A DNA stretch of 64,000 nt from Nitrospirota bacterium (GTDB taxonomy: Bacteria > Nitrospirota > UBA9217), in the NCBI GenBank assembly GCA_963741205.1, contig CAVUHW010000008.1:32001-96000 (forward strand), in the 5' to 3' direction. The notes beneath the pieces are model-generated. The model ran no database searches. It had not been told where the DNA came from and saw nothing but the letters and a program-made list of their open reading frames with translations. Shown here one piece after another: positions 32 through 39,735 of this stretch (position 1 is its first letter; each line of letters starts with the position of its first letter). A program made the position numbers and the translations under genes.

Positions 32-99
32 AATTCATAATGCTGTTATTATTTTGAGACTGTAAATATTTGGCTGGACCGAAGGAAGTGAAAGGGTAT

Positions 100-363
100 A
101 TGAAGGACGATCAGAAAAAAGCCTCGACACTCAGGTATCGGCGCGGGAAGGACAGCGCGCCCACGGTCGTTGCCAAGGGCAGGGGCTTGGTGGCCAAGAA
201 GATCATCTCCTTGGCCAGAAAAAACGGCGTCCCTATCCATGAGGACCGGAACCTGGTCGAAATCCTCTCCACGATCGGCCTCTACGAGGAGATCCCGACA
301 GAGCTCTACAAGGCCGTCGCGGAGACCCTCGCTTATATCCACAAGATGAGCGGCAAACTGTGA
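100..363 (+). CDS. FlhB C-terminal-like (EscU/YscU/HrcU family) small cytoplasmic protein
   Basis: APTVVAKGRGLVAKKII...GVPIHED..LVEIL...EIPTELYKAVAE motif; ATG at 100. Confidence 0.85.
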   Translation: MKDDQKKASTLRYRRGKDSAPTVVAKGRGLVAKKIISLARKNGVPIHEDRNLVEILSTIGLYEEIPTELYKAVAETLAYIHKMSGKL

Positions 364-375: not shown

Positions 376-2529
376 TCAAATAGTGAGGGAGGTCCTCTGT
401 TTTGCGTCGAGGATTCGCCGAACCACCGAGAGCAGGTACGGCGATTCAAACGGTTTCTTCAGAAACCCGTCGATTTCTCTTATCCCGTCCTTGTCAGCGA
501 CATATTTCTCATGTCCCGACATGGCGATAATTTTTACTTCAGGCCTTATCTCTTTTATCTTCTTGATGAGCTCCTTGCCGTCCATCACCGGCATGGCCAT
601 GTCCGTGATGACGAGCGCTATCTCCTGGGGTATTTTCTTGAAGATGTTGAGCGCCTCGGGGGAAACGCTTATGGCGAATGTCTTGTAGCCGTGACTGGTC
701 AGGGCGTCCTGGATCGCGTCCAGCATCTCTTTCTCATCGTCGACAATAAGCAGCGTCTCGTCTCCGCCCAAGGAAGCGGATGCGTCTTTCGCCGGCGCGA
801 GCGCGGCCGAGCGAGCGGGGAGGAATACCGTAAAGGTCGTCCCTTGACCGACCGTGCTCTGGACGGTGATATACCCATTATGCTCCTTGACCGTTCCATA
901 CACCATGGACAAACCGAGCCCCGTGCCCTTTCCCCGCTCTTTCGTCGTGAAAAACGGCTCAAAAATCTTGTTCACGATATCATCGGGGATTCCCGTCCCG
1001 GTATCGGCGACCGTGAGCCGGACGTATTCTCCCGGCGCGATGTAGTTCGGGTAGTGCAGGCCCTCCTTGATATCGACGACAACCGTTTTGATAGTGATTT
1101 TTCCGCCCTTCGGCATGGCATCCCGCGCGTTGATGATGAGGTTCATGACGATCTGCTCGATATGGTTGGTATCACCCTGGATGTGCGGAATATGGCTGTC
1201 GAGCTCTACGTTTATTTCGATTTTTTTATCGATGACCCGCTCGAGGAGCTTGATCGTATCATACACCACATCGTTAAGATTGAGCGAGACGATCTCAAAC
1301 TTGCTCTTGCGCGCAAAGCCCAGCAGTTTTGAGATCATCCTTCCCGCCCTTCGCGAAGCGTCTTCGATCACGCCGAGGCTGTTTGTCGCCTTTACATCCA
1401 GTACAGAGGTCCTGCGAATGATCTCCGCGTGGCCGAGGATGGCAGTCAGAATGTTATTGAAATCATGGGCGATGCCGCCAGCGAGGACGCCGATGGAATC
1501 CATCTTCTGCGACTGGAACACGTGCTCCTGGAGTCTCTTTCTCTCCGTAATATCGCGGTAAAAGGATTGGATGAACGGTTCATCGCCGATGGTAATCGCT
1601 TTCGCGCTGATCTCGAGCTCGATGGGGGTGCCGTCCTTTTTATTATGTCTGATTTCGAACACGAGGGATTCGCCGCCTAAAATCTTGCGCATCCTCTCCG
1701 CCATTTTTTCTTTGTCACTGTCGCCTTCGAGCAGCTTTATATGCGCACCGACCAATGCATCCCTGCTGAAACCATGCATCTCGCATGCCTTCTCATTCGC
1801 GTTCACGATGACGCCGTTCCTGTCAAGGACGACGATGCCGTCTGTTGCGTTTTCAAAAAGCGACCGGTGCCACTGCTCGGACTTGTTCAGTTCTTTTGTT
1901 CGCTCTGAAACGAGATCTTCAAGTTGCAGAGAGTATTTTTCAAGTTGCTCTTTGTCTCTAGACAGGTCATATTCGAGGGAAAGTTTTTTAGTAAAAAGCT
2001 CATCATTATAATATCTCCATGAAATGGCGATGATCGCTGTTGCTATTAAAAAGACGTTACTGTTAATAAAGACAGGAACATTGGTAATATTATCAATAAT
2101 TAAGATGGGTAGCAGGTAAATTGAATATATTAAGGCACCCATGAATACAGTAAATTCAATGGAAAAAAGAGGAAGAAATCCGAGACAAAACATAAAAACA
2201 ATAATCATACCCACATAATAACTGGATTGATGGCCTCCAAAAGAAAGTATCATTAACTCGACCATAATTGATACAATAAGACCGGCAAAAACACTGGCAC
2301 TCAGTATAAGATAATGATTTGTCGTTAATCTATTTATAACAAATATGATTATGAACAAAAAAGCTGTTATTGATCTGTACATTAAGAATTTAGAGAAATT
2401 TTCAGGAGTGACAAAATAATCTAATACACTTAATGACATGATAACGACAGCTCCGGAAGCAATTGCGAACGAGCCCCAGTACTGGAGTAATTTGGTGGTT
2501 TCTTGTTCTATATACTGTTTTTTATTCAT
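376..2529 (-). CDS. Membrane hybrid sensor histidine kinase (multi-TM input, PAS, HisKA, HATPase, REC)
   Basis: Hydrophobic N-terminal ~175 aa; PAS (LFENATDGIVVLD); H-box AGGIAHDFNNIL; FEPFFTTK..GTGLGL; receiver LIVDDE..ITDMAMP. Confidence 0.95.
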   Translation of the reverse strand: MNKKQYIEQETTKLLQYWGSFAIASGAVVIMSLSVLDYFVTPENFSKFLMYRSITAFLFIIIFVINRLTTNHYLILSASVFAGLIVSIMVELMILSFGGHQSSYYVGMIIVFMFCLGFLPLFSIEFTVFMGALIYSIYLLPILIIDNITNVPVFINSNVFLIATAIIAISWRYYNDELFTKKLSLEYDLSRDKEQLEKYSLQLEDLVSERTKELNKSEQWHRSLFENATDGIVVLDRNGVIVNANEKACEMHGFSRDALVGAHIKLLEGDSDKEKMAERMRKILGGESLVFEIRHNKKDGTPIELEISAKAITIGDEPFIQSFYRDITERKRLQEHVFQSQKMDSIGVLAGGIAHDFNNILTAILGHAEIIRRTSVLDVKATNSLGVIEDASRRAGRMISKLLGFARKSKFEIVSLNLNDVVYDTIKLLERVIDKKIEINVELDSHIPHIQGDTNHIEQIVMNLIINARDAMPKGGKITIKTVVVDIKEGLHYPNYIAPGEYVRLTVADTGTGIPDDIVNKIFEPFFTTKERGKGTGLGLSMVYGTVKEHNGYITVQSTVGQGTTFTVFLPARSAALAPAKDASASLGGDETLLIVDDEKEMLDAIQDALTSHGYKTFAISVSPEALNIFKKIPQEIALVITDMAMPVMDGKELIKKIKEIRPEVKIIAMSGHEKYVADKDGIREIDGFLKKPFESPYLLSVVRRILDAKQRTSLTI

Positions 2530-2559
2530 AGTATGAATTATAGCACAATTGTCTTAAAA

Positions 2560-2767
2560 AACCCTATTCATATTGCTGCCTTCACGACAACTTCGGAGTG
2601 GGCAGCGGCAATCCGTTACTTTAAAAGGAAGTACAGTAGTTTACCGGCTTAGAATGTTGCTCGGCAAGAAGGATCTTCATCCCTGCCTTTGCAAGATAAC
2701 AACTGCATACCAGATCGATTACGCCAGCTATAATCACAGCATTATAATATTCCTTCATTTTTAACAT
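2560..2767 (-). pseudogene. Decayed N-terminus of a phytoene-dehydrogenase-like FAD oxidoreductase
   Basis: Hand translation MLKMKEYYNAVIIAGVIDLVCSCYLAKAGMKILLAEQHSKPVNYCTSF*, then AAAHS in another frame; GxGxxG eroded; rest of gene absent. Confidence 0.65.
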
Positions 2768-3017
2768 TTACGATTTTTGATTCAATAAATTATTTACGAG
2801 CTCTACGGCCTCTTTCACAGTAGTAATTTTAGGGACATCCTCATCTCTCATTGAAACTTTAAATTTTTTTTCAATTGCAACGGTGATTTCAATCGCTTTA
2901 ATAGAGTCTACTTCCAAGATCCTCAAAAAAATTTTTTTCCGGAGTTATTTCATCTTCATCAAATCCCGATACATCGGATATTATTGCAATTATTGATTTT
3001 TCTACAGTATCCACCAT
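2768..3017 (-). CDS. Acyl carrier protein (one 1-nt frameshift near 2920)
   Basis: Hand translation MVDTVEKSIIAIISDVSGFDEDEITPEKNFFED/LEVDSIKAIEITVAIEKKFKVSMRDEDVPKITTVKEAV; DS phosphopantetheine motif; missed by the ORF track. Confidence 0.88.
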
Positions 3018-3036
3018 TGTTTACACTTTCATCTCC

Positions 3037-4256
3037 TTAGCCAGTATATTTTTTTAGAACCAGACAGGCATTATTGCCGCCAAACGCATACGAGTTATTT
3101 AATGCGATCGTGACTGCATGTTTTCTTGCATGATTGGGCACACAGTCAATATCACATTCAGGGTCAGGTGTTTCATAGTTGATAGTTGGAGGTATAATAT
3201 CATTTTTAATGGCAAGTGCGCAAGCGATTGCTTCGATTGCTGAAGCTGCGCCCATAGTGTGGCCGAGCATGGATTTAATGGAACTGCGGGAATCTTTTTA
3301 TAGTGAGTCCCAAAAATCTCTTTGATGGCAGCAGATTCGTTCCTATCATTCGTAAGCGTTCCTGTTCCGTGAGCACTTATATAATCTACATGCTCGACCG
3401 TAATCCCTGTCTCCTGAATTGCTTTTTTCATACATGCTGCGATACCTTCTGTGGAGGAAGTGGTCATGTGAAATGCATCACAACTAAGACCATACCCCAG
3501 AACCTCGGCGTAAATGTTACGCGTTTCTCTGTCAATGCACTTTCAAGAGGTTCAAGAACCACTATTCCTGCGCCTTCGGCCACCATCATCCCTTTTCTGT
3601 TTTTATCAAAAGGCTGGCACTTTTCAGGAGCACGGCAGAGAATTGATTAAACCCCGTGAAGGCAACCTTCGAAAGCGGATCTGCGCCGCCTGCCAGCACG
3701 ACATCTGCCCACCAAACCTGATTAAATCAAACCCATACCCTATTGCATAATTACCTGCTGCAGCAGGCAGTAGAAAACATCATATTGGACCGCAAATGCC
3801 AAATTCCTTGGCGATTGCAGGAGGGGTTGAGTGTGTCGGTACCTGGCATAATAAATCATTATGCTGAAATCGTCTCTTTCTTCGTGTACAATGATTTCAT
3901 TAACTTATTTCACAGGACTGCACTGATCCCATAGTCGTTCCAACACAGGTAGCCAACCTTCATGTTTGAAATTTCATCTTTTGATAGTTGGGCATCTCTA
4001 ATTGCAAGCTTTGAGCCGCAAGTGCCATCTGTGATGCTCGGCTAAGGGATTTAAGTTTATCCTCTCGGAATAAAGTGTTCAGCCTTGAAATTTTTAACCT
4101 CGTCCACCGTTATGAGTAAAATGATTTGTCGTATCAAAAGATGACACTGGGCTTATTCCTGATTTGCCTTTAAGAAGGCCATCCCAGAATTCTTCCTTAC
4201 CGATACCAATGGATGATATGATCCCAAGTCCTGTTATGACTACTCGTCTTATTCAT
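3037..4256 (-). CDS. Beta-ketoacyl-ACP synthase (FabF-like KS), catalytic triad intact, multiple frameshifts
   Basis: [16 protein letters not shown] start; [29 protein letters not shown] motifs across frames. Confidence 0.88.
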
Positions 4257-4690
4257 CTCTTACACTAAATACAAGCTCTGCCTCTGCTATTTTTTTGTCG
4301 TCGACAAATGCCTCGCCCGACACATAGGCGCCGTTCGGCAGGGATTTGACATTTTCAACCTTTATCTTCAACTGGTCACCTGGTACCGCAGGGTGAAGAA
4401 ATCGCGCCTTGACCGATCCAAAATAATAAATCTGCTTTTTGTCTCCTTCTGTCTTTTTTTCTTACGTTGCAAAAAGGACGATGGCAGTCTGTGCCATTGC
4501 CTCGATTATGAAAGCACCGGGCATAACGGCCTTTTCAGGGAAATGGCCAAGGAAGACCATATCATTCCCTGAAATATTCTTCACTGCAACTGCGTGTTTC
4601 CCGGGTTCAATTTCCAAGACCCTGTCGATCATGATGAAGGGAAAACGCTGGGGAATGAGTCTTTTTTATTTCTTCGAAGTCAAGCTGCAT
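4249..4690 (-). CDS. fabZ: 3-hydroxyacyl-ACP dehydratase (FabZ-like), frameshifted
   Basis: [19 protein letters not shown]...[20 protein letters not shown] read by hand. Confidence 0.85.
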
Positions 4691-5934
4691 TCGTCACCTT
4701 TGTAGACGCCTACAACAACGGCTGTGTTCTGACCGTATGGGTCAGTTGAAGTTACGAGTACGTTCTTTACTGCTTTTTTGTCTCGCTTCATTCCGGGACA
4801 TAATCGAGATCGCACTCGGGGTCTCTTTCCTTATAGTTTACCGTGGGAGATATTAATCCATTCTGTAGTGCACCTACCCCAGCTGATAGGGAAAGAGCGC
4901 CGGAAGCTGAAAACGACTCGCCTACCATGGATTTTATCGAACTCACCGGGTACCGTGTAGGCATGCTTTCCGAAAATCTCTTTTATCACCTTTGTCTCCA
5001 TCCGGTCAAGACCGCTAGTCGAATTGGCACAGGCACAGATATAGTCTATGTCTTCCGGATTGAGAGAGGCGTCTTTTAATGCAAGGATAATGGCGTTCTT
5101 TAATCCTTGTCCTGCATGATTGAAGTGGTTTCCGGCAGAAGGATCAAAAGCATTGCCATATCCCAGAACCCTTGCAAGAATGGTGGCGCCTCTGTTTACA
5201 TGCATGATCCTCATCTTCAAGTACCAGCACTGCCGCGCCTTCAGAAAGCATTATTCCGTTCCTTCTTGCATCAAAGGGGCAGCAAATAGGCTCTGAGCTG
5301 TCCGTCCCCGATAAAAAACCAAGCTTATGAAAGCCCAAAAAAGTCTCCTCGCAAAGCTCTTCAACACCGCCTGCAAGTACAACATTCGCCCTGTTTAATC
5401 GTATGAAATCAGCAGCATAGGAGACGGCATCAAGGCTGGCGCAGAAGCCTGTGGATATGGTGGTATTGAACCCTTTGATCTTGATCGGATGGACACATGG
5501 CTTGCTGGAGAATTTATCACGGTGTTCGGAAAGTGCGAGGGATTGACAGAGCCGCGGACCTTCGATAAGGCCAGAGCGGTCAAATTGGGAGATGCTGTGG
5601 AGACTGCCGAAGGTCGTGCCGATAGAGACGCCTGTAGAATGGGCGTTTTCGTCGGTGATCTCGAGCCTGGCGTCATCAATGGCCAGTTTAGCGGCGGAGC
5701 ATATCAACCTTGTGCTTCTGTCGAGGTCCCGCAGCCCTTTCTTGCCGAGCAGAGAAAGAGGATCAAAGTCGACTATCTCGCCGGCGCGATGGACTTGAAA
5801 GGGCGTTGTATCGAAGAGGGATATTTCTCCAGAATCCCGTTTTCCCCTGGAATAGACCCGTCCCAGTAGTTATCCCTGCCGATACCGATGGGCGATAAGA
5901 CCCCTATGCCTGAGATTACGACCTTTCTCTGCAT
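4680..5934 (-). CDS. Ketosynthase-fold protein lacking catalytic residues (chain-length-factor-like), frameshifted; 3' end approximate
   Basis: RKVVISGIGVLSPIGIG start; STGFCASL in place of STAC, ICACANST in place of AHGTGT, VGESFS in place of GHxxG. Confidence 0.8.
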
Positions 5935-5940
5935 CGTCGT

Positions 5941-6694
5941 TTAGATCCCCAATCCTCCGTCTATCTGTATTACTTGTCCCGTGATGTACTGCGATGCATC
6001 GCTCGCCAGGAATACGACAGCCTGCGCCACTTCATCCGCGGATGCCGAATCTTCCAAGCGGGATCATTTTCATGGCTTTTTCCCTGAAGGTGTCGCTGAA
6101 GGCCGCTGTCATATCAGTGTCCACAAAACCGGGAGCGACGGCATTGACTCTGATGTTATACGGCGCCACTTCTTTTGCCAGCGACTTGGTAAAGCCGATT
6201 ACTCCGGCCTTTGCCGCCGCGTAATTGACCTGGCCGGGGAGGGGATGGATGCCGCTGACCGACGAGATATTGACAATGATTCCGCTCTTTTGCTTGAGAA
6301 AGGTGATGATGCATGCGCGGGTTGTATTGAAAACGCCGGTGAGATCGGTATCTATTACGTCGGACCAATCCTCTTTGCTCATCATCATAAGGGACTTGTC
6401 CCGCGTTATGCCGGCGTTATTGACGAGGATATCGAGCCGTCCGAATTCCTTTTTTACCTCTTCAATGAGCGTCTTTGCGCCCTCAAAATCCCTCACATCC
6501 AGTTGAAAAGGTGTTGCCCTCCTGCCCATTCCCTGAACTTCTTTTGCCAGCGATTCCGCTGCAGAAGGGTTTCTCGTATACGTGAATGCGCAGTCAGCGC
6601 CTTCACGACACAGGGCAAGAACGATCGAGCGGCCTATGCCCCTCGTCCCACCCGTTACGATCGCCACCTTATTGAGAAATAAATTTTTCTCCAT
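5941..6694 (-). CDS. fabG: 3-oxoacyl-ACP reductase (FabG-like), frameshift near 6035
   Basis: TGGTRGIG, NNAGITRD, YAAAK, C-terminal ITGQVIQIDGG in shifted frame. Confidence 0.92.
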
Positions 6695-7004
6695 GCTTTA
6701 AGCGTTCAATTTAACATAGCCTTGAACAGTAATCAAGAGTAATCACGTCAGGGGATGGGAATTACACGATGGGATGAGCAAAATCTTGCAAGCTGCATCG
6801 TTGCGTAGTGAATCACTGGATGCATAAAAAGATCACTACAGCGGGTGCAGGATTAGCACAGATAGTTTGATCGCAGCATGACCATATACGTGCGCAGGGT
6901 CAATTATGCGTACTTCCGGATTACCGCCTTGAGTGGTCTGGCTGGCTCAGGGTTATGGGGTCGAATGAGGGCAGGGTGTCATTAGCAAAGTTCAGTGCAT
7001 TCTC

Positions 7005-8056
7005 TTAATGCTTCGTTGCAATATAAAAAATTATCGAACCCGATTTTACTCGGGTCATTGTAATGCGCTGCTGGGGATTTCAGCGCGACGGAACAATCTT
7101 TCAAAATCATCATCAGTACGCTGCAAGAAACCATCCCAGTCAGCGAACCAGTGATAAAGTTGCGACCGGTAACGGTTTGCATCCTTGAAAGCCGCTATGA
7201 GCTTTCCGCCAGGGTTAAGCAGCATATAGAGGGTACTGAGCAGTTTCACGAGGAAATCATCGGCCAAGTAATCGAAGTATCCAACACTGTAAATGATATC
7301 CTGCATGCCGAATGCAGACACGGCGGTCTCGTAGTCGAACATTCTGAGGGCATTATATTGAATGAATTCTGCACGGTCTGCCGAGAGGCCGGCATATGAT
7401 AAACGATTGAGAGCGAAATCAAGGGCGTCGGAGTCTAAATCGATGCATTTGAAGTGGGCCCCGGACTTTTCAATTTCTGGTACTATTTCATGCAGCTCAC
7501 GGCATGAGCCGCAGGCGATGTCGAGGACTTTCGGATATTGTCTGTTAATCAGCTCTGTTTTCAGCAGCTCAGCCAGTTTTCGCATTCTTTCTCGCACCCC
7601 TACCGCAAGGGTTGCAGAAAGCACATATTTATCGAGATAATATCCTATCCCCTCCGACATCGGCGTATTTCTGTACATGAATTCTATTGTTTTATAATCT
7701 CCCTGGTATCCTTGAGGCCAAGTCCGGACCCGATTTGCACCGTAGCTTTTGGATACAATAGGTTCCGTCTTATCACGAAAGGCCACCTGTGCCGCCTTGA
7801 TTGCAGCCTTGTCATTTACCAACTTCTCAAATTGCTCGCATACCTGGAGCATCGAGTCATTCAGGACCGTAAGCTCCTGAAAGATGCTCTCGGGATCTCC
7901 TTCCTTGCTTATGCACCTTCGTTCAATGTCCCTGAGCGTATCCATATAGTGATCGGTCGTCGCTTCAAGGTAGCTGATATACTTCTCGCTCTCCTCGCTG
8001 ACGAGCAACGCATTTTCATTGATTTCTTCGTTATCATAACCCCAAGAATTTTGCAT
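7005..8056 (-). CDS. Class I SAM-dependent methyltransferase, PhcB-like (hydroxy-fatty-acid methyl ester synthase-like); frameshift near 7060
   Basis: WPQGYQGDYKTIEFMYRN..AVGVRER..VLDIACGSCRE..DIIYSVGYFDYL..LNPGG; PxGYxGD/YSxGxFDYL pattern recalled from PhcB-type proteins. Confidence 0.7.
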
Positions 8057-8407: not shown

Positions 8408-8944
8408 TCATTTTCTCTTGTAAAGTCCGATCAACTCGTTTTGAGCAACAATGTGCCCCTTCATTGCTTTTTCAAGCGCAGCCTTTGTTGTGTTCGCGCC
8501 GGGAGTGAGAGTAGCGTCGAGCGCATAAAGTTTAAAGTAATATCGGTGAGTGCCGGATGGGGGGCAGGGGCCGCCATAGTTGCGGTTCCTGAAGTCATTA
8601 ATGCCCTGTTGGGCCCCTGAAGGAACGGAATTTTCCTTGATAGTAGTAACCATGGGATCAATGTTCCAGACCACCCAATGCACCCACGTTCCCGCCGGCG
8701 CGTCCGGATCGTCGACGATCAGGGCAAGCGACTTTGCGTTTGCCGGAACGTTTTCGATGGCAAGGGCGGGGTTTACGTCCGCTCCATCGCAGGTAAACTT
8801 GGCCGGAATGTGCTCATTGTGTTTAAAGTTTGGGCTTGATATCTTCATCGTACTCATTTCACTAGCCTCCGTTCGAATGGGATGAAATGCGAGGGTGATG
8901 AATACAAACAAAAATGCCGTACTCCTCGTTATCCGCACGCACAA
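8408..8944 (-). CDS. YbhB/YbcL family PEBP (Raf kinase inhibitor-like) protein
   Basis: DDPDAPAGTWVHWVVWNI, YGGPCPPSGTHRYYFKLYALD. Confidence 0.93.
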   Translation of the reverse strand: MCVRITRSTAFLFVFITLAFHPIRTEASEMSTMKISSPNFKHNEHIPAKFTCDGADVNPALAIENVPANAKSLALIVDDPDAPAGTWVHWVVWNIDPMVTTIKENSVPSGAQQGINDFRNRNYGGPCPPSGTHRYYFKLYALDATLTPGANTTKAALEKAMKGHIVAQNELIGLYKRK

Positions 8945-9962: not shown

Positions 9963-10245
9963 GCTACGCGCCTCCTTTCCGTGGAATTGAAGATTACGGA
10001 AATGCCGCAACAAAAAAGCCGCGAAGCTACAGAGTCTTCGCGGCCTTTCGTACTGCAAAAAACTTCCGAACTTCTAATAATATGTTCACACTCCGGCCCT
10101 ATGAAGTCAAGGGCTAATTGACGCTGTGCAGTGCCCCTCCGCAACAGATATCAATGCATGCGCTCCATGGCCTTCTGCTTCATCCTCCTCCTCTTGTCCC
10201 GGATCAAACGACAGTTGTTCGCACAAAACGGGCGGATTTGTTTCC

Positions 10246-10275
10246 TTGACAAGTGAACAAATGTTCACCTATAAT
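10246..10275 (+). promoter_or_regulatory. Sigma70 promoter with LexA (SOS) box in the spacer
   Basis: TTGACA(10246)-18 bp-TATAAT(10270); palindrome gtGAAC-aaat-GTTCac at 10253-10268. Confidence 0.85.
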
Positions 10276-10331
10276 ATGTTCATCCGGAAAGCGCGCCTAA
10301 AGGTCCGATCCGGCAAGAAAAGAGGCGTGCC

Positions 10332-10877
10332 ATGCAAACAAGTACCGTTCACCTGAATGTAGTTCATCGCCTTGAAGACCTTGTCTTGCCTGCTGCAGGA
10401 GGTAGCGGCACGGGGGCTGTCCCGATCGACGAGCCCCACGCATACCGGGTCCTCGGTCTCGTGGAGGCGGGGTTTCCGAGCCCGGCCGAGGAGGAGATGC
10501 GGGACACGCTGTCCCTCGATGAATTCCTCGTTTCGAACCCGGAAGCATCCTTCCTGCTCAAGGTCTCCGGAGATTCCATGACCGGCGCCGGCATACTCCC
10601 CGGTGATTTGGTCATCGTGGACCGCGGTCAGACCGCGAAAAGCGGCGACATCGTGATCGCCGAGGTGGACGGCGAGTGGACCATGAAGTTCCTGAAAAAG
10701 AGCGGCGATACGGTCTACCTCGTGCCAGCGAACCCGAAGTACAAACCGATACGACCGCAGCGCGAACTCAGGATCACCGGCGTGGTGACGGCGGTGGTGA
10801 GGAAGTACCGGCAGGGACAAGGGGCGGGGGGCAAGGGCCAGGGGAGCAGGGTCGCCGCGCAGACGGACGGCGAGTAA
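10332..10877 (+). CDS. umuD: UmuD-like S24 peptidase (no DNA-binding HTH)
   Basis: VEAGFPSPA cleavage site, VSGDSM serine, TMK lysine; short N-terminus. Confidence 0.8.
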   Translation: MQTSTVHLNVVHRLEDLVLPAAGGSGTGAVPIDEPHAYRVLGLVEAGFPSPAEEEMRDTLSLDEFLVSNPEASFLLKVSGDSMTGAGILPGDLVIVDRGQTAKSGDIVIAEVDGEWTMKFLKKSGDTVYLVPANPKYKPIRPQRELRITGVVTAVVRKYRQGQGAGGKGQGSRVAAQTDGE

Positions 10878-10937
10878 GAAGGAAGGTCTCTCGTGTCGCC
10901 GAAGACATGCCTTGCGCTAAAAAACGGGCCGTGCTAG

Positions 10938-10958
10938 ATGCTATCATAATGAAAGCAT
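10938..10958. promoter_or_regulatory. Palindromic operator upstream of the antitoxin gene
   Basis: ATGCTATCAT-A-ATGAAAGCAT inverted repeat overlapping CATAAT. Confidence 0.6.
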
Positions 10959-10971
10959 GGGGAGGTCTTGT

Positions 10972-11202
10972 ATGCCCAACATTCTCATCCGTGACGTTTC
11001 CCAGAAGGCCGTCAATCAATTGAAAGCGCGGGCCAAACGGCACAACCGCTCGCTTCAGGCAGAGGTGAAGCGCCTCGTCGAGGAAACCGCGAAGACGACC
11101 GGGGAGGGCGCCCTTCTCCGCGCGCGAAAAATCCGCGCAAGCTTCGGCAAGACGACGTTTTCCGACAGCGCCGAACTGCTCCGCGAGGACCGAAACCGGT
11201 GA
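10972..11202 (+). CDS. FitA/VapB-like ribbon-helix-helix antitoxin
   Basis: MPNILIRDV..LKARAKRHNRSLQAEVKRLV..DSAELLREDR; GTGA overlap with PIN gene. Confidence 0.88.
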   Translation: MPNILIRDVSQKAVNQLKARAKRHNRSLQAEVKRLVEETAKTTGEGALLRARKIRASFGKTTFSDSAELLREDRNR

Positions 11203-11642
11203 CCCGTTTCGTTGTCGATGCCAGCGTGGCGATCAAATGGTATCTGCCGGAACCGCACAGCGCCGACGCCGACCGGCTGTTGGGCGGCGGTTTTCAACTT
11301 CTCGCCCCGGACCTGCTTGTCACCGAAGCGGGAAATATTCTCTGGAAGCGGGTCATGAGGTCGGAGCTGACCGTCCGAAAGGCGCAGGTCATCATGCGCG
11401 CCCTGGTAGCCCTGCCAATGACGCTGCACCCTGCAAGCGTTCTCGCGGAAAACGCAATGACCGTTGCCTGCGGCCTGAAGCGGTCCTTTTATGACAGCTT
11501 GTATCTGGCGCTCGCCCTGACAGCGGATTGCCGGCTGGTGACCGCCGACAGAAAGCTGTTCGATGCCGTACGAGACGCAGCGCCGGTCAGGAAGCACATT
11601 CTCTGGATAGAAGATGTGCCGGAAAAGAATGACCCTGATTGA
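11199..11642 (+). CDS. vapC: VapC PIN-domain toxin
   Basis: VVDASVAIKW, YDSLYLALA, LVTADRKL. Confidence 0.92.
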   Translation: MTRFVVDASVAIKWYLPEPHSADADRLLGGGFQLLAPDLLVTEAGNILWKRVMRSELTVRKAQVIMRALVALPMTLHPASVLAENAMTVACGLKRSFYDSLYLALALTADCRLVTADRKLFDAVRDAAPVRKHILWIEDVPEKNDPD

Positions 11643-11847
11643 CGTAATTAGGTCAGTGCGATGCCAGAGAAATCCGGATCGGAATGGACACCACCTCCGC
11701 CGCGATACGCTGCGGACGCCCTTGTTCCCCTGCGAATCGAAGCCGCGGATATGCCGATGCGGTTCTACAGGTAGATGCATGCAAATATATGTTGATGCCG
11801 GCTCCTAACGGCTCAATAACTGGTTGGGGAAAAACATAAGGACCATC

Positions 11848-12378
11848 ATGCTGTTCAAAAAAGCCATCATATTTGGAATCAGAGTTGTCATATTTGCTGC
11901 GATAATCGCTGTGATAATCGCTGCTGCTATTCCTGTGCTTCGCAAGCACAGCCCAGGCTTCAACTGGATATTTTCACCCACGGATCTTTATAAGCCGCTA
12001 TCAGTGAGCACTATCGATCTTGGGAAGGAAGGCCAGAGCTATCAGATAAGCTTCGAGAATAAGTACCCTGGGTTGCACTGGTTTGCCATCCAGGTTGCAA
12101 ACCCGCGATCAACTACCACAGCCTATGAAGGCGATTTTGTTCTTCGGCTGGAAATACTGCATGATCATAAGCCAGTGCTCTCAAAGCTTATACACGGGCC
12201 AAGCGACCCATATGGGAGCCAGAAAAGCGGCTTTGCCGTCCTCTGGTATCGAGCACCACTTGACCTGCCGCTTCGAGAACCTCTTGAGGCGGAGATAACG
12301 GTTGTGAAGGCAGATCAGGCGTTTGTAGCGAAGCATGGCATGCCCGAGCTGGTCGTAAGAAAGCTTTCGGATGAGTAA
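11848..12378 (+). CDS. Hypothetical membrane-anchored protein
   Basis: Open 176-codon frame with N-terminal TM helix; lower GC than the core genes. Confidence 0.65.
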   Translation: MLFKKAIIFGIRVVIFAAIIAVIIAAAIPVLRKHSPGFNWIFSPTDLYKPLSVSTIDLGKEGQSYQISFENKYPGLHWFAIQVANPRSTTTAYEGDFVLRLEILHDHKPVLSKLIHGPSDPYGSQKSGFAVLWYRAPLDLPLREPLEAEITVVKADQAFVAKHGMPELVVRKLSDE

Positions 12379-12469
12379 ATGAAAAGCTCGTAACGAGGCG
12401 CCTCAGCTAAAGACGAATAATGGCTTTTTCTACAGACTCGTTATACGTTCAAAACAGGATGAACAATCT

Positions 12470-13150
12470 ATGAAGATCAAAGCGATTATTTTCGGGGCTA
12501 CGGGCATGGTGGGGGAGGGCGTTCTCCACGTGGCACTCGGACATCGGGACGTAGAATCCGTTCTGGTCATCGGCAGAAAATCGTGCAATGTGAAACACCC
12601 CAAACTGAAGGAATTGATCCACAACGATTTCTACGACTATTCAGCCATTGAAAAGGAGCTTGCAGGCTATAACGCATGCTTCTTCTGTCTCGGCGTCTCT
12701 TCCGTGGGGATGAGTGAAAAAGCCTACACCCGCGTGACGTACGACCTGACGATGGAGGCTGCTAAAACCTTGTCAAGACTCAACCCTGATATGACCTTCT
12801 GCTATGTATCCGGTGCCGGGACCGACAGCACTGAGAAGGGCCGCATCATGTGGGCGCGCGTGAAGGGCAGGGTGGAAAATCGCCTGAAGGATTTTCCGTT
12901 CAAGTCCGTGTACCTGTTCAGGCCCGGATTTATCAAGCCCATCAAGGGCCTCAGGCATGCGCATACAATCTCCGAGGCGGTTGGAATGATGTATCCCCTC
13001 TTAAAAGTCATAAGCCCGAAGTATGTATGCACACTGGAAGATGTAGGCCTTGCAATGATACAGGCGGCCAAAGCAAGTCCTTCAAGACGGATCATCGAGA
13101 ACAAGGATATCGCCCTATTAGCCGGAACCGGCACAAGCAGCAAGACCTAA
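12470..13150 (+). CDS. NAD(P)-binding atypical SDR/epimerase family protein
   Basis: IFGATGMVGEGV Rossmann motif; CFFCLGVSS; YVSGAGTDS. Confidence 0.9.
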   Translation: MKIKAIIFGATGMVGEGVLHVALGHRDVESVLVIGRKSCNVKHPKLKELIHNDFYDYSAIEKELAGYNACFFCLGVSSVGMSEKAYTRVTYDLTMEAAKTLSRLNPDMTFCYVSGAGTDSTEKGRIMWARVKGRVENRLKDFPFKSVYLFRPGFIKPIKGLRHAHTISEAVGMMYPLLKVISPKYVCTLEDVGLAMIQAAKASPSRRIIENKDIALLAGTGTSSKT

Positions 13151-13200
13151 CTGACAATACTCAGAGCACCCTTAATTGTACCTGGGTTCTGACAAACCGG

Positions 13201-13267
13201 ATATAACGGATGTACCTTCCTTCGAGAGGGTCGCTGAAAACCGCGTCCCTCAGGCGAAGCGTTATTA
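13201..13267 (+). mobile_element. attC-like integron cassette recombination site (degenerate)
   Basis: ATAAC...ttcGAGAGGGtcgc-tgaaaacc-gcgtCCCTCaggcgaagc-GTTATTA; AAC/GTT outer cores with inner imperfect stem; next ORF starts 16 bp later. Confidence 0.5.
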
Positions 13268-13282
13268 CCAAGAGAGCTGATA

Positions 13283-13607
13283 ATGAAAAAGTGTCCTTTC
13301 TGCGCTGAAGATATTCAAGACGACGCTAAAAAGTGTAAACACTGCGGTGAATTTCTGGATGCCGCCCCCCCCACGTTTTGCAGAAAAAAAGATCCCATGG
13401 TATTTCCGAAAAACCTTTATTGTCATCGCAGTCTGCTCTGTGGGGCCTCTGGCGTTGCCCCTGATTTGGTGGCGTCCACAAACGACGCGGGGATGGAAGA
13501 TCGGACTCACCATAGGAATCCTTGTTCTCAGTTGGATGTTGTTCCAAACCACGATGGAATCCATTCGTACCATCAAGGAGTATTACACGTTCATTAAAGG
13601 ACTCTGA
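13283..13607 (+). CDS. Zinc-ribbon plus membrane protein (frameshift in poly-C near 13370)
   Basis: MKKCPFCAEDIQDDAKKCKHCGEF joined to KIPWYFRKTFIVIAVCSVGPLALPLIWW frame. Confidence 0.78.
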
Positions 13608-13663
13608 AATTATCTCCAGTAGTCGGCCATTTGAAAATAACGGCAAATCACGAGGATTGAGAC

Positions 13664-14026
13664 ATGGGACTGGTACACAAAAGAGACATGAAAAAAGCGG
13701 TGCGGCACGGACAGGCGCAGGAGGAGCAGCCGGTGCGTTTGAGCAAAACGCAGAAGAAAAAAGCGGCGCTGTCCTTGCAGGACCTGGGTGAACGACTTGT
13801 GAAGTTGTCGAACGAGCAGCTCAAACAAAGCGATCTGCCCGAGGACGTCCTGGCTGCCGTGAAAGCGGCAAAGACCATTACAAAACACCATCCCCTTAGC
13901 CGGCAGATACAGTATATCGGCTCGTTGATGAGGAAATACGATCCTGCGCCTGTCAGGGAATTCCTCGACGCCTTGGGGCAGGGGAACCGCCGGCAGACGC
14001 GAAGGTTAAGCAAAACGAATAAATGA
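13664..14026 (+). CDS. DarP/YjgA (DUF615) ribosome-associated family protein, C-terminally short
   Basis: SKTQKKK..LQDLGERLVKL..RQIQYIGSLMR. Confidence 0.8.
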   Translation: MGLVHKRDMKKAVRHGQAQEEQPVRLSKTQKKKAALSLQDLGERLVKLSNEQLKQSDLPEDVLAAVKAAKTITKHHPLSRQIQYIGSLMRKYDPAPVREFLDALGQGNRRQTRRLSKTNK

Positions 14027-14037
14027 CGCAATGCGAA

Positions 14038-14064
14038 TGGATTCCCGCTTTCGCGGTGAATGAC
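14038..14064. repeat. Half REP-like element
   Basis: tggattcccgctttcgcggtgaatgac. Confidence 0.65.
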
Positions 14065-14175
14065 AGAATCGGTCCCGGCAACGAGTGTATGAAGGCTATC
14101 AGAAGAGCGCTCAAACCGGAGCAATCCAGCGGGCGGCTGATATAGCATGGATCTCGTCATCAAAAAAGGATAGAC

Positions 14176-14421
14176 ATGAGCGACCAGCAACATAAAGATC
14201 CCCTTCACGGTGTCACGCTGGAAATGATGCTTACCCAGCTGGTGGAGCATCATGGATGGGAGAAAATGGGCCAGATCATCAATATAAGATGCTTTAATAA
14301 TGACCCGAGCATCAAGTCCAGCCTGCAGTTCCTGAGGAAAACCCCTTGGGCGAGAACAAAGGTCGAAGAGCTGTATCTGAAGTACAGAAGGAATGCTTTG
14401 AAAATGCCGAAACGCAGTTAA
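14176..14421 (+). CDS. VF530/DUF2132 family small DNA-binding protein
   Basis: [37 protein letters not shown]. Confidence 0.92.
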
Positions 14422-14583
14422 GATGGTCCACTGGATATTACAGGGGCTGCATGAACGATTATGGTCGCCCGTCGGTTTTAAAGATGGTGGGCCATTTCAA
14501 CTCAGACATACCACTGGAGTATCAACAGCTTCCCTTGGTCCGACCCGGCATTGGAGTTCGGTGACGTCGAACGTTACACACGT

Positions 14584-15489
14584 ATGAAATTTACCAAATA
14601 TCATGCCCTCGGTAACGACTATCTGGTCCTCGATCCGAAAGATTACGACCAGCCTTGGGCGCTTACGGCCGAGCAGATCAAGACCATCTGCGACCGACAC
14701 TATGGCATCGGGTCGGACGGAATACTTTTCGGCCCGCTGCCGTCTACAAAGGCTTCCTTCTCTCTTCGAATATTCAATCCTGATGGAAGTGAGGCGGAAA
14801 AAAGCGGCAATGGCCTTCGTATTTTTTGCCGCTATCTATGGGACGGGAAATTGGTCGGCGACAGCCTTTTTTCCGTAGAAACGAAAGGCGGCGTCATTCA
14901 GGCGCAGATACTGGATAGCGGCAAACTTGTCCGGGTAGAAATGGGCATGGTGAGTTTTCGAAGCGAGGACATCCCGGTTGCCGGCCCATCGCGCGAGGTT
15001 TTGCGCGAACAAGTCACCGTAGGCGACAGAACCTTTCAGTTCTGCGGTGCGACCATCGGCAATCCGCATTGCGTTATTTTGCTTGATGAGGTATCACCGT
15101 CACTGGCAAAACAGTATGGCCCGCTTTTGGAAGTTCATCCCTTATTTCCCAATCGGACGAATGTGCAGTTCGTAAAGGTTCTGGACCGAAGGAATATCCG
15201 GATCGAGATATGGGAGCGAGGCGCGGGGTATACCCTGGCATCGGGCAGCAGCAGTTGCGCATCAGCCGCCATTGCATACAAACTGGGTTTCTGCGATTCA
15301 ACTATGACCGTACATATGCCCGGCGGCAAGATCGAGGTATCCATGGACGCCGCGTTTCGCATCGTGATGACCGGTCCGGTGACGCGGGTGGCGAAAGGGC
15401 ATTTGTCGGGTGAGATGTTCGAGAGTGTTGAAAACCAGCTAATCGATCAACCCGCCAAGCGGATTAGCTCATTGTTGGCTACAACGTAA
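14584..15489 (+). CDS. dapF: Diaminopimelate epimerase, second (accessory) copy
   Basis: MKFTKYHALGNDY, NPDGSEAEKSGNG, GNPHC, ERGAGYTLASGSS; both canonical catalytic Cys appear as Ser. Confidence 0.85.
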   Translation: MKFTKYHALGNDYLVLDPKDYDQPWALTAEQIKTICDRHYGIGSDGILFGPLPSTKASFSLRIFNPDGSEAEKSGNGLRIFCRYLWDGKLVGDSLFSVETKGGVIQAQILDSGKLVRVEMGMVSFRSEDIPVAGPSREVLREQVTVGDRTFQFCGATIGNPHCVILLDEVSPSLAKQYGPLLEVHPLFPNRTNVQFVKVLDRRNIRIEIWERGAGYTLASGSSSCASAAIAYKLGFCDSTMTVHMPGGKIEVSMDAAFRIVMTGPVTRVAKGHLSGEMFESVENQLIDQPAKRISSLLATT

Positions 15490-15573
15490 GAACTCCAAAC
15501 AGTGGTCAAACAGTCTCCCTCAATGATATGGCGATGCCCGCTGACCTTTTTTATATTAATTCCGGAGGTATTC

Positions 15574-17233
15574 ATGTTTTCCTTGAACGCACACGATTAC
15601 GATCAGGCCCGAGCTCTCTTCAGGATCGAGGTGCCGGAGGAGTTCAACTTCGGGTTCGACGTGATCGACCGGCATGCCGCTGACCCGTCGAAACGGGCGC
15701 TGGTCTGGACCGACCCTGCGGGAAAGGAGGCCAGGGTATATACCTTCCGGGATATTTCCCGCCTCTCGAACCAGGCCGCGAACGCGCTCAAAGGCATCGG
15801 CGTCAAAAAGGGCGACCGCGTGTTCATCATGCTCGGCCGCGTCCCGGAATGGTACTTGCTGCTCGTGGCCTGCCATAAACTCGGTGCTGTCGTCGTGCCG
15901 GCGCCGGTCATCCTGCTTGCGTCCGACATCGAGTACCGGCTCATGAAAGGTAAAGCCAACATGTTGTCACGAACAGGGCGAACCATGCCAAGGTGGACGA
16001 GGCCGCGAGGAGCATCAGCGCTCCCTTTCTGCGAATAAGGCGCTGCTCGACGGAGATGCCGCGGGCTGGCACGACTTCGGAGCGAGCCATGGCCGCCGCG
16101 TCTCCCGCTCTGAGGGGCGACGTGGAGCCGAACCGGGCCTCTGATTCCTTCCTGATCTATTTCACCTCCGGAACCACCAGGTATCCCAAGATGGTCCATC
16201 ATCTCTGCTCCTATCCGCTGGGGCATCTCCGGACCGCCGGGTTGTGGCACGGGCTGACGGATAGAGACCTGATCTGGGTCGTGTCGGACACGGGCTGGGC
16301 CAAGTCGGCCTGGGGGCTCTATGGCCAATGGGCCATCGGCGCGGGATTCTTCGTTCATAATGCGGAAGGGCGGTTCAACGCCAAGCTGACCCTGGAACTG
16401 CTCACAACCAGGGGAGTGACCGCGTTCTGCGGACCGCCCACGGTCTACCGCATGCTGATCCTGGAAGATCTCGCAAAAGTACGATTACTCCGGGGTCAGG
16501 CATTTCACGTCCGCAGGCGAGCCGCTGAACCCCGAAGTGATCAGGGTCTGGCAGAAGGCAACGGGAAAGACGATCCACGAAGGCTACGGACAGACCGAAA
16601 GCTCGGTGCTGATCGCGAATTATCCCTTCATGAAGGTGAAGGCCGGGTCCATGGGCAAGCCCGTCCCGGACCTGACCATCGATATCCTGGACGAGAATTT
16701 CAAACCGGCATGCAGCCGGCGACGTCGGCTTCATCTGTGTCAAGGTGGACCCCGTGAAGCCCGTGGGCATCTTCGAAAGCTATCTTGAGGACCCTGACGA
16801 GAATGCGAAGGTCTTCCAGCAGGGCTGGTACAATACCGGCGACAAGGCAACGAAGGATGACGAAGGGTACTTCACCTTCGTGGGCCGGGGAGACGACATC
16901 ATCAAGGCCTCGGGCTACCGTATCGGGCCTTTCGAGGTCGAGAGCGTGATCCAGGAGCATCCGGCCGTGGCCGAGAATGCGGTGGTCGCCAGCCCCGATC
17001 CCGTCCGCGGCGAGATCATCAAGGCGTACATCGTGCTCGCGCCGGGCTTCAAGGCCTCAGACACCCTGGCGCACGAGATCCAGGAATTCGTAAAAGGCAG
17101 GACAGCGCCCTACAAGTATCCGCGGGAGATCGAGTTTATGACCGAACTGCCCAAGACCGTGAGCGGCAAGGTCAAACGCGCCGTGCTCCGGAGCCGCGAA
17201 GTGGAACGGAAGCTGGGGAAGCCAGGGTTGTAG
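15574..17233 (+). CDS. Short/medium-chain acyl-CoA synthetase (AMP-binding), several frameshifts
   Basis: YFTSGTT, EGYGQTE, TGD, GRGDDIIKASGYRIGPFEVE, LPKTVSGK. Confidence 0.88.
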
Positions 17234-17290
17234 GCGGACTCGAAGGTTTTCGAAAACCGATCCTTCCCGCAGCTAAAGGGAGGAGCAAAC

Positions 17291-17689
17291 ATGAATAGCG
17301 ACGAACAAGAGATCCGTCAGCTCGTTGCCACCTGGATGGCGGCGACAAGGGCGGGTGACATCGAAACGGTCTTAGGCTTGATGGCGGATGATGTTGTTTT
17401 TCTGATGCCGGGCCATCCGCCGATGATCGGAAAGTCGGGTTTCGCCGGAGCGGCGAATGCCCAGCGGGCCCAGGGAGCGCCCCGGTTCGACGGCACCAGC
17501 GAGATCCAGGAGATCCGGGTGCTCGGAGAGTGGGCGTTCATGTGGACAAAACTGACGGTCGTGGTTACCCCGCCGGGGGGCGTTCCGTCAATGACGCGTG
17601 CAGGGCATACCCTTTCCATTCTCAAGAAGCAAGGCGGCAAGTGGCTGCTTGCGCGCGATGCGAATATGCTGTCGCCAATATCAACGTGA
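17291..17689 (+). CDS. SnoaL/DUF4440 (SgcJ/EcaC-like) NTF2-fold protein
   Basis: WMAATRAGD..LMADDVVFL..GKWLLARDAN. Confidence 0.85.
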   Translation: MNSDEQEIRQLVATWMAATRAGDIETVLGLMADDVVFLMPGHPPMIGKSGFAGAANAQRAQGAPRFDGTSEIQEIRVLGEWAFMWTKLTVVVTPPGGVPSMTRAGHTLSILKKQGGKWLLARDANMLSPIST

Positions 17690-17696
17690 AGCGAAC

Positions 17697-22121: not shown

Positions 22122-23253
22122 ATGAGCGAGGGTGGAGTCATTTCCTCGGAAGAGCTGAAAAAGAGGCTGGATGATAAGCAAGTGGACTTCCTGCTCGACC
22201 TCAGGAACGAGGACGAGTTCAAGTCCTGGCGTATCGAGGGGCGTGCGGATTTCGAGGCATTGAATATCCCCCAGGAAGAGTTCGTGGGTGAAGAGGAGCG
22301 TCATCTCGCCAAATTCCCGAAGGGAAAGGAAATCGTGACCGTTTGCGCCCATGGTGACTCGTCGAAGTATGCCGCAGAGCTGCTCCAGGGCCTTGGCATC
22401 AGCGCCGTCAGTCTCAAGGGCGGCATGGACGCCTGGAGCGGATTTTATGAGACGCACAAGATCGCCGATGACCCTACCATCTATCAGATCTATCGCGTGG
22501 CGCGAGGTTGCCTGGCCTATCTCGTAGTATCGCAAGGCGCCGCCGTCGTGATCGACGCGGCCCGCCATCTCGACCGCATCGAGAACCTCGCGGCCTCGCA
22601 GAACTTACGAATCGACAAAGTTTTCGACACCCACCTTCATGCAGACCACATCTCGGGAGGCCGGGAGCTTGCCGAAAAGTCAGGCGCTGCCTACTATCTG
22701 CATCCGGCTGACGCGCGATGGCGCACGATACCCCTATGTTCCCTTCGCGGACAATCAGATCTTCATTTTCGGAACGAACATCATCGAGGTAATCCATTCC
22801 CCCGGACATACACCCGGAAGCACGTCGTTCCTGCTGAACAACAGATATCTCTTCACCGGGGACACGATCATGAAAACCGGCATCGGGAGGCCGGACCTCG
22901 GGGGGAAGGCCGCCGAATGGGCTTCGCTTCTTTATGATACTCTCTTCAGGCGATTCAAGGGTCTTGACGACAGGGTCATCGTCCTGCCGAGTCATTCATC
23001 GTCAGTACGGGAGCAGGACGGCAGCGGCGTCATCATGACGACCATGGGCCGGGCGAGGAAGGAGCTGGACCTGTTTCAGATCCGGGATGAGGCAGCCTTC
23101 ATTCGATACATTCAGAAAAACCTGCTGGAGAACCCGGAGCGTTATCAGGACATTCGCAAGGCGAACCTCGGAATAGCGAGGTTCGATGAGGCCAGGCAAA
23201 AGGAACTGGAGATAGGCAAGAACGTCTGCGGGATGGCAACGAAGGGTGGATAG
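22122..23253 (+). CDS. Rhodanese plus MBL-fold hydrolase (persulfide dioxygenase-like), frameshift near 22715
   Basis: TVCAHG rhodanese loop; THLHADHISG; SPGHTPG; TGD; PSH. Confidence 0.87.
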
Positions 23254-39705: not shown

Positions 39706-39735
39706 AATTGTTCCCGCAGCCGCAACCAAAATATC

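Follow-up and report, generated by a model that had tools for sequence, protein, structure and literature searches.

When a putative methyltransferase gene, a set of fatty-acid-synthesis-like genes and the gene of a membrane-bound sensor kinase are found in a row on one strand, a straightforward question arises: does the kinase sense what the enzymes make? Such a row occupies positions 376-8056 on the minus strand of a 64,000-nucleotide stretch of contig CAVUHW010000008.1 (positions 32,001 to 96,000; assembly GCA_963741205.1) from a Nitrospirota bacterium; this whole stretch is referred to below as the window, and coordinates are those of the window unless another locus is named. The row comprises, in this order, an S-adenosylmethionine (SAM)-dependent methyltransferase (MT), a FabG-type reductase, a 'dead' ketosynthase (KS) resembling a chain-length factor (CLF), a FabZ-like dehydratase, another KS, an acyl carrier protein (ACP), the remnant of an oxidoreductase and a hybrid histidine kinase (HK). 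A first-pass annotation had described eight co-oriented genes that might form a signaling circuit like the PhcB/PhcS system of Ralstonia. All the elements are indeed there, in that order and on that strand, but only the kinase is an intact open reading frame (ORF). The reading that we favor, at a probability of roughly 45%, is that this locus represents a conserved autoinducer synthase and receptor pair of Nitrospirota (Thermodesulfovibrionia-type), which would make and sense a methylated lipid and which would consist of an MT-HK core, with a biosynthetic cassette inserted once, in one clade.

The argument starts from related loci. Using MT as the query, 25 of them were fetched, all from uncultured bacteria and mostly titled Nitrospirota or Thermodesulfovibrionia, with one locus each titled Nitrospinota, 'Deltaproteobacteria', unclassified 'bacterium' and Desulfobacterales (the last one distant). 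The closest of them, L001, in which all eight genes are intact, served as the reference: element bounds in the window were taken from Pfam and NCBIfam matches and from tblastn with the intact L001 proteins. Intact copies of the operon are also present in L003, L005, L006 and L024. The comparison of gene order across genomes, which the first-pass annotation had proposed as a check, supports the arrangement seen in the window: the cassette is present in 17 of the 25 loci, in the order MT, FabG-type ketoreductase (KR), CLF, dehydratase (DH), KS, ACP, usually the oxidoreductase, and HK, and an orthologous kinase, which can be aligned from the first transmembrane (TM) helix to the end, is encoded downstream, in the same orientation, at 18 of the 20 loci whose length permits a verdict. 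The cassette itself is variable, FabG being absent from five loci (L011, L013, L014, L017, L018), the oxidoreductase from four (L004, L011, L012, L015) and FabZ from one (L015). In four further loci (L016, L020, L021, L022), MT and HK are direct neighbors without any fab genes. In a maximum likelihood tree of MT (40 rows, quick search, midpoint root; L017, a partial sequence, and L023, which carries stop codons, were left out), all the cassette-bearing loci included form one clade (19 rows, support of 99 in the Shimodaira-Hasegawa-like approximate likelihood-ratio test, SH-aLRT), which is nested among MT-HK-only loci and outgroups in which MT is fused to a PilZ domain. Thus, the adjacency of MT and HK in the absence of fab genes, together with the nested position of the cassette clade, identifies the MT-HK pair as the conserved core; the simplest history, as far as gene order and this tree go, would be a single insertion of the cassette into an older MT-HK pair.

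What kind of enzyme is the MT? The gene in the window (7055..8056, minus strand, with a frame-shifted tail to about 7005) encodes a class I SAM-dependent methyltransferase with a helical N-terminal domain, recognized by the Pfam models Methyltransf_12 (38.5 bits, cut-off 30) and Methyltransf_20 (32.4 bits, cut-off 21). The AlphaFold2 model of its L001 counterpart (predicted local distance difference test score, pLDDT, 86.6) contains the class I sheet. A sequence search of the PDB with MT gave nothing better than E=0.021, and an Atlas search with it returned no cluster named PhcB. The family is nevertheless a large one: from 1.84 billion cluster representatives, a profile built from 23 MT sequences retrieved 5509 proteins at E<=1e-3, of which 661 reach E<=1e-30. 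Among the best 150 listed, 56 are at least 420 residues long, with the match at the C-terminal end. Of 32 representatives, 29 of which were chosen because of their additional length and 3 because they are rich in Gly, Ala, Arg and Pro, 23 carry an N-terminal PilZ domain (two of these below the Pfam cut-off), two a cNMP_binding domain and two a receiver domain; in the window-type MT, judging from the L001 model, a three-helix N-terminal region takes the place of PilZ. PilZ-MT forms occur also among the fetched loci (L021, L013), and in L025 a cNMP-MT gene directly follows a hybrid kinase gene and a REC-GGDEF gene. A search started from one PilZ-MT representative (P0231) returned relatives from Omnitrophota only. 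Fusions with PilZ, cNMP-binding and receiver domains fit an enzyme that would be gated by second messengers.

A different kind of fusion bears on the substrate. In both of the still longer homologues (P0383 and P0384; 749 and 742 amino acids), the MT domain is followed by two FabZ-like hotdog repeats, which match FabZ in the PDB at E=5e-6 and 7e-3 and of which the first one keeps the GH(F/Y)PG motif; in L008 (4668-5797), the frame of such a fusion likewise continues past the usual end of MT. These fusions tie the MT to the chemistry of 3-hydroxyacyl thioesters and represent the most direct link of this kind at the sequence level. Furthermore, 9 of the best 120 listed MT homologues carry the JGI label 'extracellular factor (EF) 3-hydroxypalmitic acid methyl ester biosynthesis protein', a product name in use for phcB, as does one of the 120 listed in the search from P0231. 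In a tblastn search against plasmids, MT matched 133 records, all below 60% identity and mostly from Rhizobium, with neither Ralstonia nor Cupriavidus among the named genera. We found no literature on PF12147 and, judging from the titles listed, none on a PilZ-PhcB fusion or on domain families of the phcB methyltransferase.

What, then, could the cassette make? Its genes, all on the minus strand, encode a FabG-type 3-oxoacyl-ACP reductase (5941..6694; adh_short at 7e-66, TIGR01830 model), the CLF-like protein (about 4693..5934; Ketoacyl-synt matches on fragments in several frames), a FabZ-like 3-hydroxyacyl-ACP dehydratase (4249..4690; FabA/FabZ matches on both halves), a frame-shifted FabF-like KS (3037..4256; matches to the N and C domains of Ketoacyl-synt on fragments, tblastn pieces in three frames), an ACP in two frames (2768..3020; PP-binding matches on both pieces, tblastn frames -3 and -1) and a remnant, of about 50 codons, of a CrtI/phytoene-desaturase-like oxidoreductase dependent on flavin adenine dinucleotide (FAD; about 2609..2767, aligned by tblastn with oxidoreductase residues 6-55 at 66% identity). 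The intact FabG and FabZ of L001 score above the cut-offs of the 3-oxoacyl-ACP reductase equivalog TIGR01830 and of a FabZ model, respectively; the L001 KS passes the subfamily model NF005589 and fails the fabF equivalog (423.5 versus a cut-off of 493.75), whereas CLF, ACP and the oxidoreductase stay below all NCBIfam cut-offs, the latter matching phytoene dehydrogenase (4dgk) at 3e-26 with the crtI_fam model below its cut-off. The KS of the intact relatives has the Cys/His/His triad (in TACAAG, HGTGT and GHTMG); at the same columns, the CLF has Phe (next to a Cys), Asn and Glu (TGFCAS, ANST, GES), as seen in all four locus pairs inspected, out of ten aligned, and in the CLF fragments of the window itself, so that the earlier description of this protein as a dead KS is borne out. 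There is no enoyl reductase in the cluster. The claim that this is not the housekeeping fab operon also stands, since plsX, fabH, fabD and rpmF were not seen among the ORFs scanned across the window. Judged by these sequence features, the cassette is a dedicated chain builder of the KS/CLF type. Additional genes are found in some relatives: in L011 (6662-7540) and probably in L012 (13478-14365), a second methyltransferase gene is located between FabZ and KS, its L011 product showing Methyltransf_11 and CMAS matches along with weak matches to the DVU_1556 family and BioC, and the kinase gene of L011 is closely followed, on the opposite strand, by a gene for a FabH-type KS III.

The kinase (376..2529, minus strand, 717 amino acids), delimited by Pfam matches and hydropathy, has about six TM helices with short loops (residues 18-171), followed by PAS, HisKA, HATPase_c and receiver domains. 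Its membrane part (residues 36-169) scores 24.5 bits against MASE8 (PF20968), below the cut-off of 26.2, and MASE8 is the name of its nearest named Atlas clusters (scores 0.95-0.96). The protein is 79% identical to the L001 kinase over 719 residues.

Put together, these parts suggest the following scheme. The cassette, with FabG, KS and CLF, FabZ, its own ACP and, usually, the CrtI-like flavoenzyme, would build a dedicated 3-hydroxy or unsaturated acyl-ACP; the MT would methylate the acyl chain or the released acid, which would yield a neutral, membrane-permeant lipid; and the six-helix kinase would detect this lipid within the membrane and signal by phosphorelay. The product, its diffusibility and its sensing by the kinase are what we infer from the parts, and methylation at the carboxyl is likewise a proposal. 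Several observations weigh against this scheme. The cluster contains no thioesterase, acyltransferase or starter enzyme. The NCBIfam matches of MT are weak and sub-threshold, and the structural neighbors that Foldseek finds for the MT model are small-molecule C- and O-methyltransferases of a generic kind, at template-modeling scores of only 0.4-0.55; the best of them are 3ocj and the alpha-keto-acid C-methyltransferases SgvM/MrsA, and the CurJ C-methyltransferase and cyclopropane fatty acid (CFA) synthase are also included. The phcB-type label is an automatic one, and many equally close homologues are named only 'SAM-dependent methyltransferase'. We know of no ligand of MASE8. The cassette of L013 is not accompanied by HK, and the same probably applies to L017, within the 1.3 kb that are available. 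The PAS and receiver domains of the window kinase are absent from the cartoon of PhcS in Fig. S1 of PMC6989110. Finally, the biosynthetic genes in the window are not translatable as assembled.

This last point calls for a closer look at the state of the present copy. FabG, CLF, FabZ, KS and ACP each appear in the ORF listings in two to about nine frame pieces. In a DNA alignment of the stretch from FabG to ACP with L001 (4.2 kb, 87.3% nucleotide identity), there are 31 insertion or deletion (indel) events, of which 28 break the frame. By our own assignment from alignment positions, one of the 28 falls upstream of FabG, one in FabG, nine in CLF, one in FabZ, 13 in KS, one in ACP and two in the oxidoreductase remnant. 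FabG suffers from a single frameshift, at 6039, near its C-terminus; the frame-breaking indels of CLF span 5861-4696; FabZ has a frameshift at 4667 and, when the sequence is read directly, an in-frame TAA at 4462-4464; those of KS span 4248-3286, with an insertion at 3762 directly 3' of the catalytic Cys codon; and ACP is split by a 1-nt insertion at 2917. Hence the KS, which had been annotated as active, is not an active gene as assembled. About 1175 bp of the L001 oxidoreductase gene (473 amino acids) have no counterpart in the window, and the edge of the remnant is marked by deletions of 10 and 4 nt. The MT gene (89.1% nucleotide and 88% amino acid identity to L001) has one indel, a 1-nt deletion at 7061, by which the ORF ends early, at 7055, and the last 17 residues are lost; the missing tail includes the nearly invariant R336 and F344 (L001 numbering) and the predicted strands 332-336 and 342-348, the last two of the fold. 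Only if these breaks are errors of sequencing could the window, with its biosynthetic half disrupted in this way, operate the circuit.

Are they? We consider it somewhat more likely than not that the breaks stem from sequence or assembly error in a locally poorly supported stretch; to a very recent but real inactivation we give somewhat less than even odds. When the window is projected onto the L001 reading frames, the ratios of nonsynonymous to synonymous substitution rates (dN/dS) are 0.07 for FabG, 0.19 for CLF, 0.09 for FabZ and 0.16 for each of KS, ACP and the kinase, in the same range as for the intact orthologues L005 and L003 compared with L001 (0.04-0.20). The broken genes retain a strong third-position bias, with first- and second-position changes making up, by our sums, 152 of the 472 substitutions in the cassette genes of the window, as compared to 266 of 798 in the intact L005. 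The substitutions in the cassette show no sign of a neutral phase, and a record of this purifying type leaves two options for the breaks, namely errors of assembly or a very recent origin. Stop codons had seemed to prove real decay, but two of the three that were counted turned out to be artefacts, one being upstream of the true FabG start and the other a FabZ stop that overlaps the KS start, and a pair of indels that compensate each other next to a run of A could account for the third (FabZ codon 76, the TAA at 4462-4464). With these stops explained away, and with no unambiguous nonsense substitution found in the cluster genes of the window relative to L001, every disruption is of the indel type. 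Natural decay of a pseudogene should bring along many neutral substitutions and some nonsense changes, and in bacteria deletions are usually favored; here the 28 frame-breaking indels consist of 18 insertions and 10 deletions, and just one insertion among the 18 sits in a homopolymer run of at least four bases.

One alternative takes the indels as real: the strain would have recently lost the production of the signal or lipid while keeping the kinase, and would now listen without producing. We regard this as a tentative possibility, somewhat below that of the inactivation as such. The sharply local distribution of the breaks speaks for it. They are confined to the cassette and the tail of MT, whereas the alignment of HK with L001 (2.2 kb, 81.0% nucleotide identity) contains three indels, all of 3 nt, and no frame-breaking one, where about 14 would be expected at equal rates; as mentioned, the dN/dS of this gene is 0.16. 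The large deletion, of 1.2 kb, that left the oxidoreductase remnant points in the same direction and may be real, because four other loci lack this gene altogether, and the absence of FabG as well from other loci indicates that parts of the cassette have been lost repeatedly. The same local pattern recurs in L009 and L023 (about 10000-19000), where the cluster genes are broken by indels between flanks that keep ORFs of 600-750 amino acids, the frame-breaking indels numbering 6 in MT, 11 in the oxidoreductase and 7 in HK of L023, and 9 in the oxidoreductase, 6 in HK and 4 in KS of L009. Against a producer turned listener, however, stand the absence of any excess of first- and second-position substitutions alongside 28 indels, the lack of a clear nonsense change and the predominance of insertions, all described above, and also the distribution of split cluster genes: of the 11 loci labeled with the 'MFD' isolate prefix, 5 have such genes, as opposed to none of the remaining 10. 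This skew points to an effect of data type, the 'MFD' loci presumably being long-read assemblies. Whatever the cause, there is a practical warning here: in some metagenome assemblies the cluster is riddled with indels, and gene callers would miss it or call pseudogenes.

If we return to what the intact operon does, the main rival of the proposed signaling pair is a biosynthetic one, namely that the cluster makes a specialized membrane lipid or pigment (a polyene-like or methyl-modified acyl chain, given that there is no enoyl reductase), with the MT tailoring the product and the kinase doing nothing more than regulating expression. KS/CLF with KR, DH and ACP and without an enoyl reductase is the make-up of highly reducing type II polyketide synthase (PKS)-like systems, and with the FlxB model of the flexirubin type, FabG reaches 270.7 bits, short of the cut-off of 340. 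The C-methyltransferases of PKS and the CFA synthase among the Foldseek matches, a plasmid 'type I polyketide synthase' with a homologous MT domain (28.6% identity, E=7e-15), the second, CMAS/BioC-like methyltransferase inside the L011 cassette and the kinase-less cassette of L013 would all be at home in such a pathway. This rival is weakened by the occurrence of MT and HK together in the four cassette-free loci, which is the older state on the MT tree, and by the PilZ, cNMP-binding and receiver fusions of the MT family, which would be unusual for an enzyme that tailors a pigment; in addition, the scanned loci showed none of the genes for aryl starters, thioesterases, lipid transfer or export that typify aryl-polyene clusters. 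We consider the lipid or pigment pathway somewhat less likely than the signaling pair.

Least likely, in our view, is that the substrate of MT is a protein or some other non-lipid molecule of the kinase pathway, as in adaptation-type methylation, the fab cassette being an unrelated insertion: the independence of the MT-HK pairing from the cassette, the signaling-domain fusions of MT relatives and a weak, sub-threshold match of the L020 MT to the CheR SAM-binding domain (E=5e-5) would agree with it, but MT falls outside the CheR family in Pfam and NCBIfam, its best structural neighbors are small-molecule methyltransferases, natural MT fusions with FabZ-like domains exist, and in an entire clade the cassette has stayed in its place between the two genes, an argument that acyl chemistry is functionally connected.

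How far could the proposed MT-HK pair extend? In its broadest form, the idea would be that Phc-like signaling by methylated fatty acyls reaches beyond Ralstonia and its kin: a module of MT and membrane kinase would be widespread in Nitrospirota and related to forms in Omnitrophota, Planctomycetota and further phyla; cyclic di-GMP (c-di-GMP; via PilZ), cyclic nucleotides or phosphorylation would gate its synthase; one clade of Nitrospirota would have added a KS/CLF factory for a private signal; and copies in which the factory is broken and the kinase intact, as in the window, would be natural listeners. As a whole, this chain of suggestions is speculative, and we deem it unlikely. We are not aware of any characterized cell-to-cell signal in Nitrospirota or Thermodesulfovibrionia. 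Judging from the titles listed, our literature search found no paper linking phcB-like genes to Nitrospirota, and a search of the literature on biosynthetic gene clusters yielded nothing specific among the entries listed either. If the proposed autoinducer pair is real, it would be the first candidate autoinducer system of Nitrospirota, would widen the range of methyl-ester lipid signaling by way of a compact, testable operon, and would connect the making of a signal with input domains for c-di-GMP and cNMP.

The surroundings of the cluster are for the most part unremarkable, the rest of the window being mostly intact housekeeping DNA with a few other split genes. On the 3' side of HK, the next ORF is a convergent FlhB-C-like gene (70-363, plus strand), a small ORF that contains only the C-terminal FlhB/YscU-type domain (positions 264-335 of the Bac_export_2 model). 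Directly upstream of MT, both in the window (8408-8944, minus strand) and in L001 (9001-9549, plus strand), there is a gene for a PEBP/YbhB-family protein with a signal-like N-terminus, which may belong to the locus. No Rfam family was found in the window. Promoter-like sites number 13, versus 13.3 in shuffled sequences, and terminator-like sites 15 versus 9.2; we did not treat the latter count as informative. Horizontal transfer of the cluster was considered on the basis of its G+C content (about 47%, versus 56% for the window) and rejected, as the values within the cluster span 34% to 54%, being low where TM-rich segments or ACP are encoded.

Some genes elsewhere in the window are also split or short. 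An AMP-binding gene of the acyl/aryl-CoA ligase type (15502-17233, plus strand) lies in three overlapping ORFs that cover successive parts of AMP-binding and AMP-binding_C, which means at least two frameshifts outside the cluster. A translesion polymerase of the DinB/IMS family (17598-18790, plus strand) is divided between two overlapping ORFs (IMS; IMS_HHH and IMS_C), and an ORF at 22122-22937 (plus strand), in which a rhodanese domain is joined by a match to just positions 4-80 of the metallo-beta-lactamase model (196 positions), is probably truncated as well. A radical SAM protein (609 amino acids) and a DUF2344 protein (258 amino acids) are encoded by overlapping ORFs at 49724-52253 (minus strand), whereas L025 has one 907-amino-acid protein with both parts; either one gene has been split here, or the form with two genes is natural. 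An intact block of lysine and arginine biosynthesis genes occupies 35591-43726 (dapB, dapA, a lysA-type decarboxylase gene, argH and argG, along with a diaminopimelate epimerase gene at 37539-38420, minus strand, which is the second one in the window, the other being at 14551-15489, plus strand). A Phd/YefM-like antitoxin gene is paired with that of a PIN-domain toxin at 46317-47104 (plus strand), and a solitary PIN-domain ORF is found at 11199-11642 (plus strand). Among the relatives, L021 encodes a TOTE conflict-system primase-helicase (AEP-TOTE and ResIII; 15841-18252, minus strand) a few kb away from its MT-HK pair.

It remains to compare the locus with systems that are already known. With the housekeeping operon of type II fatty acid synthase (FAS), plsX-fabH-fabD-fabG-acpP-fabF, it shares FabG, FabZ and KS that are close to FAS enzymes, to the extent that the L001 FabG and FabZ pass NCBIfam cut-offs for FAS. 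Unlike that operon, it has none of plsX, fabH, fabD and rpmF among the ORFs scanned; its KS fails the fabF equivalog, its ACP scores below the cut-offs, and its KS has a dead partner. The highly reducing type II PKS-like systems, such as those for aryl polyenes, flexirubin and ishigamide, share with it a discrete KS and a CLF-like dead KS, a KR of the FabG type, a DH of the FabZ type, a dedicated ACP and no enoyl reductase. The resemblance to the aryl polyene and flexirubin clusters ends with the aryl-starter, thioesterase, lipid-anchoring or transfer and export genes, which were not seen in the loci scanned, and with a sub-threshold FlxB score; besides, the cluster described here is framed by MT and a sensor kinase, which are older partners than the cassette.

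In the Phc system, according to PMC8578825, PMC6989110 and PMC9102662, the gene of the methyltransferase adjoins that of the sensor kinase, and a methyl 3-hydroxy fatty acid is made. The MT-HK core is arranged like phcB-phcS, and the locus is at best a putative member of the Phc family. The likeness consists, first, in a SAM-dependent methyltransferase gene that is co-oriented with the gene of a multi-TM sensor histidine kinase, directly adjoining it in four loci and separated from it by the cassette in the window; second, in a non-catalytic N-terminal region in both methyltransferases, as judged on the PhcB side from the account in PMC6989110, which locates R22 outside the methyltransferase domain; third, in the phcB-type product name borne by some members of the MT family, for which JGI is the one source; and fourth, in the FabZ-like fusions of MT relatives, which point to 3-hydroxyacyl substrates. 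For PhcS, Fig. S1 of PMC6989110 depicts TM, dimerization/phosphoacceptor and kinase domains, with PhcR and PhcQ as regulators. Of the PhcB/PhcS-like circuit that had been suggested for the window, the pairing of MT with a sensor kinase holds up as a conserved trait, as the 18 of 20 loci attest, but the kinase, with its PAS and receiver domains and a MASE8-like sensor, differs in architecture from PhcS and is not followed by PhcR/PhcQ-like genes. There are further differences: a private KS/CLF-KR-DH-ACP cassette and a CrtI-like enzyme separate MT from HK here, and the lineage is Nitrospirota, whereas Phc belongs to Burkholderiaceae. In Ralstonia, the acyl chain for the Phc signal is drawn from general metabolism.

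The last comparison is with the alpha-hydroxyketone systems CqsA/CqsS and LqsA/LqsS, where the synthase is an acyl transferase dependent on pyridoxal phosphate (PLP) and there is no dedicated ACP/KS machinery, whereas here MT takes this place. CqsS is a hybrid kinase with a receiver domain. By analogy in layout, these systems and the locus described here would share the same principle: the gene of an autoinducer synthase stands beside that of a six-helix sensor kinase for a hydrophobic, acyl-derived signal.

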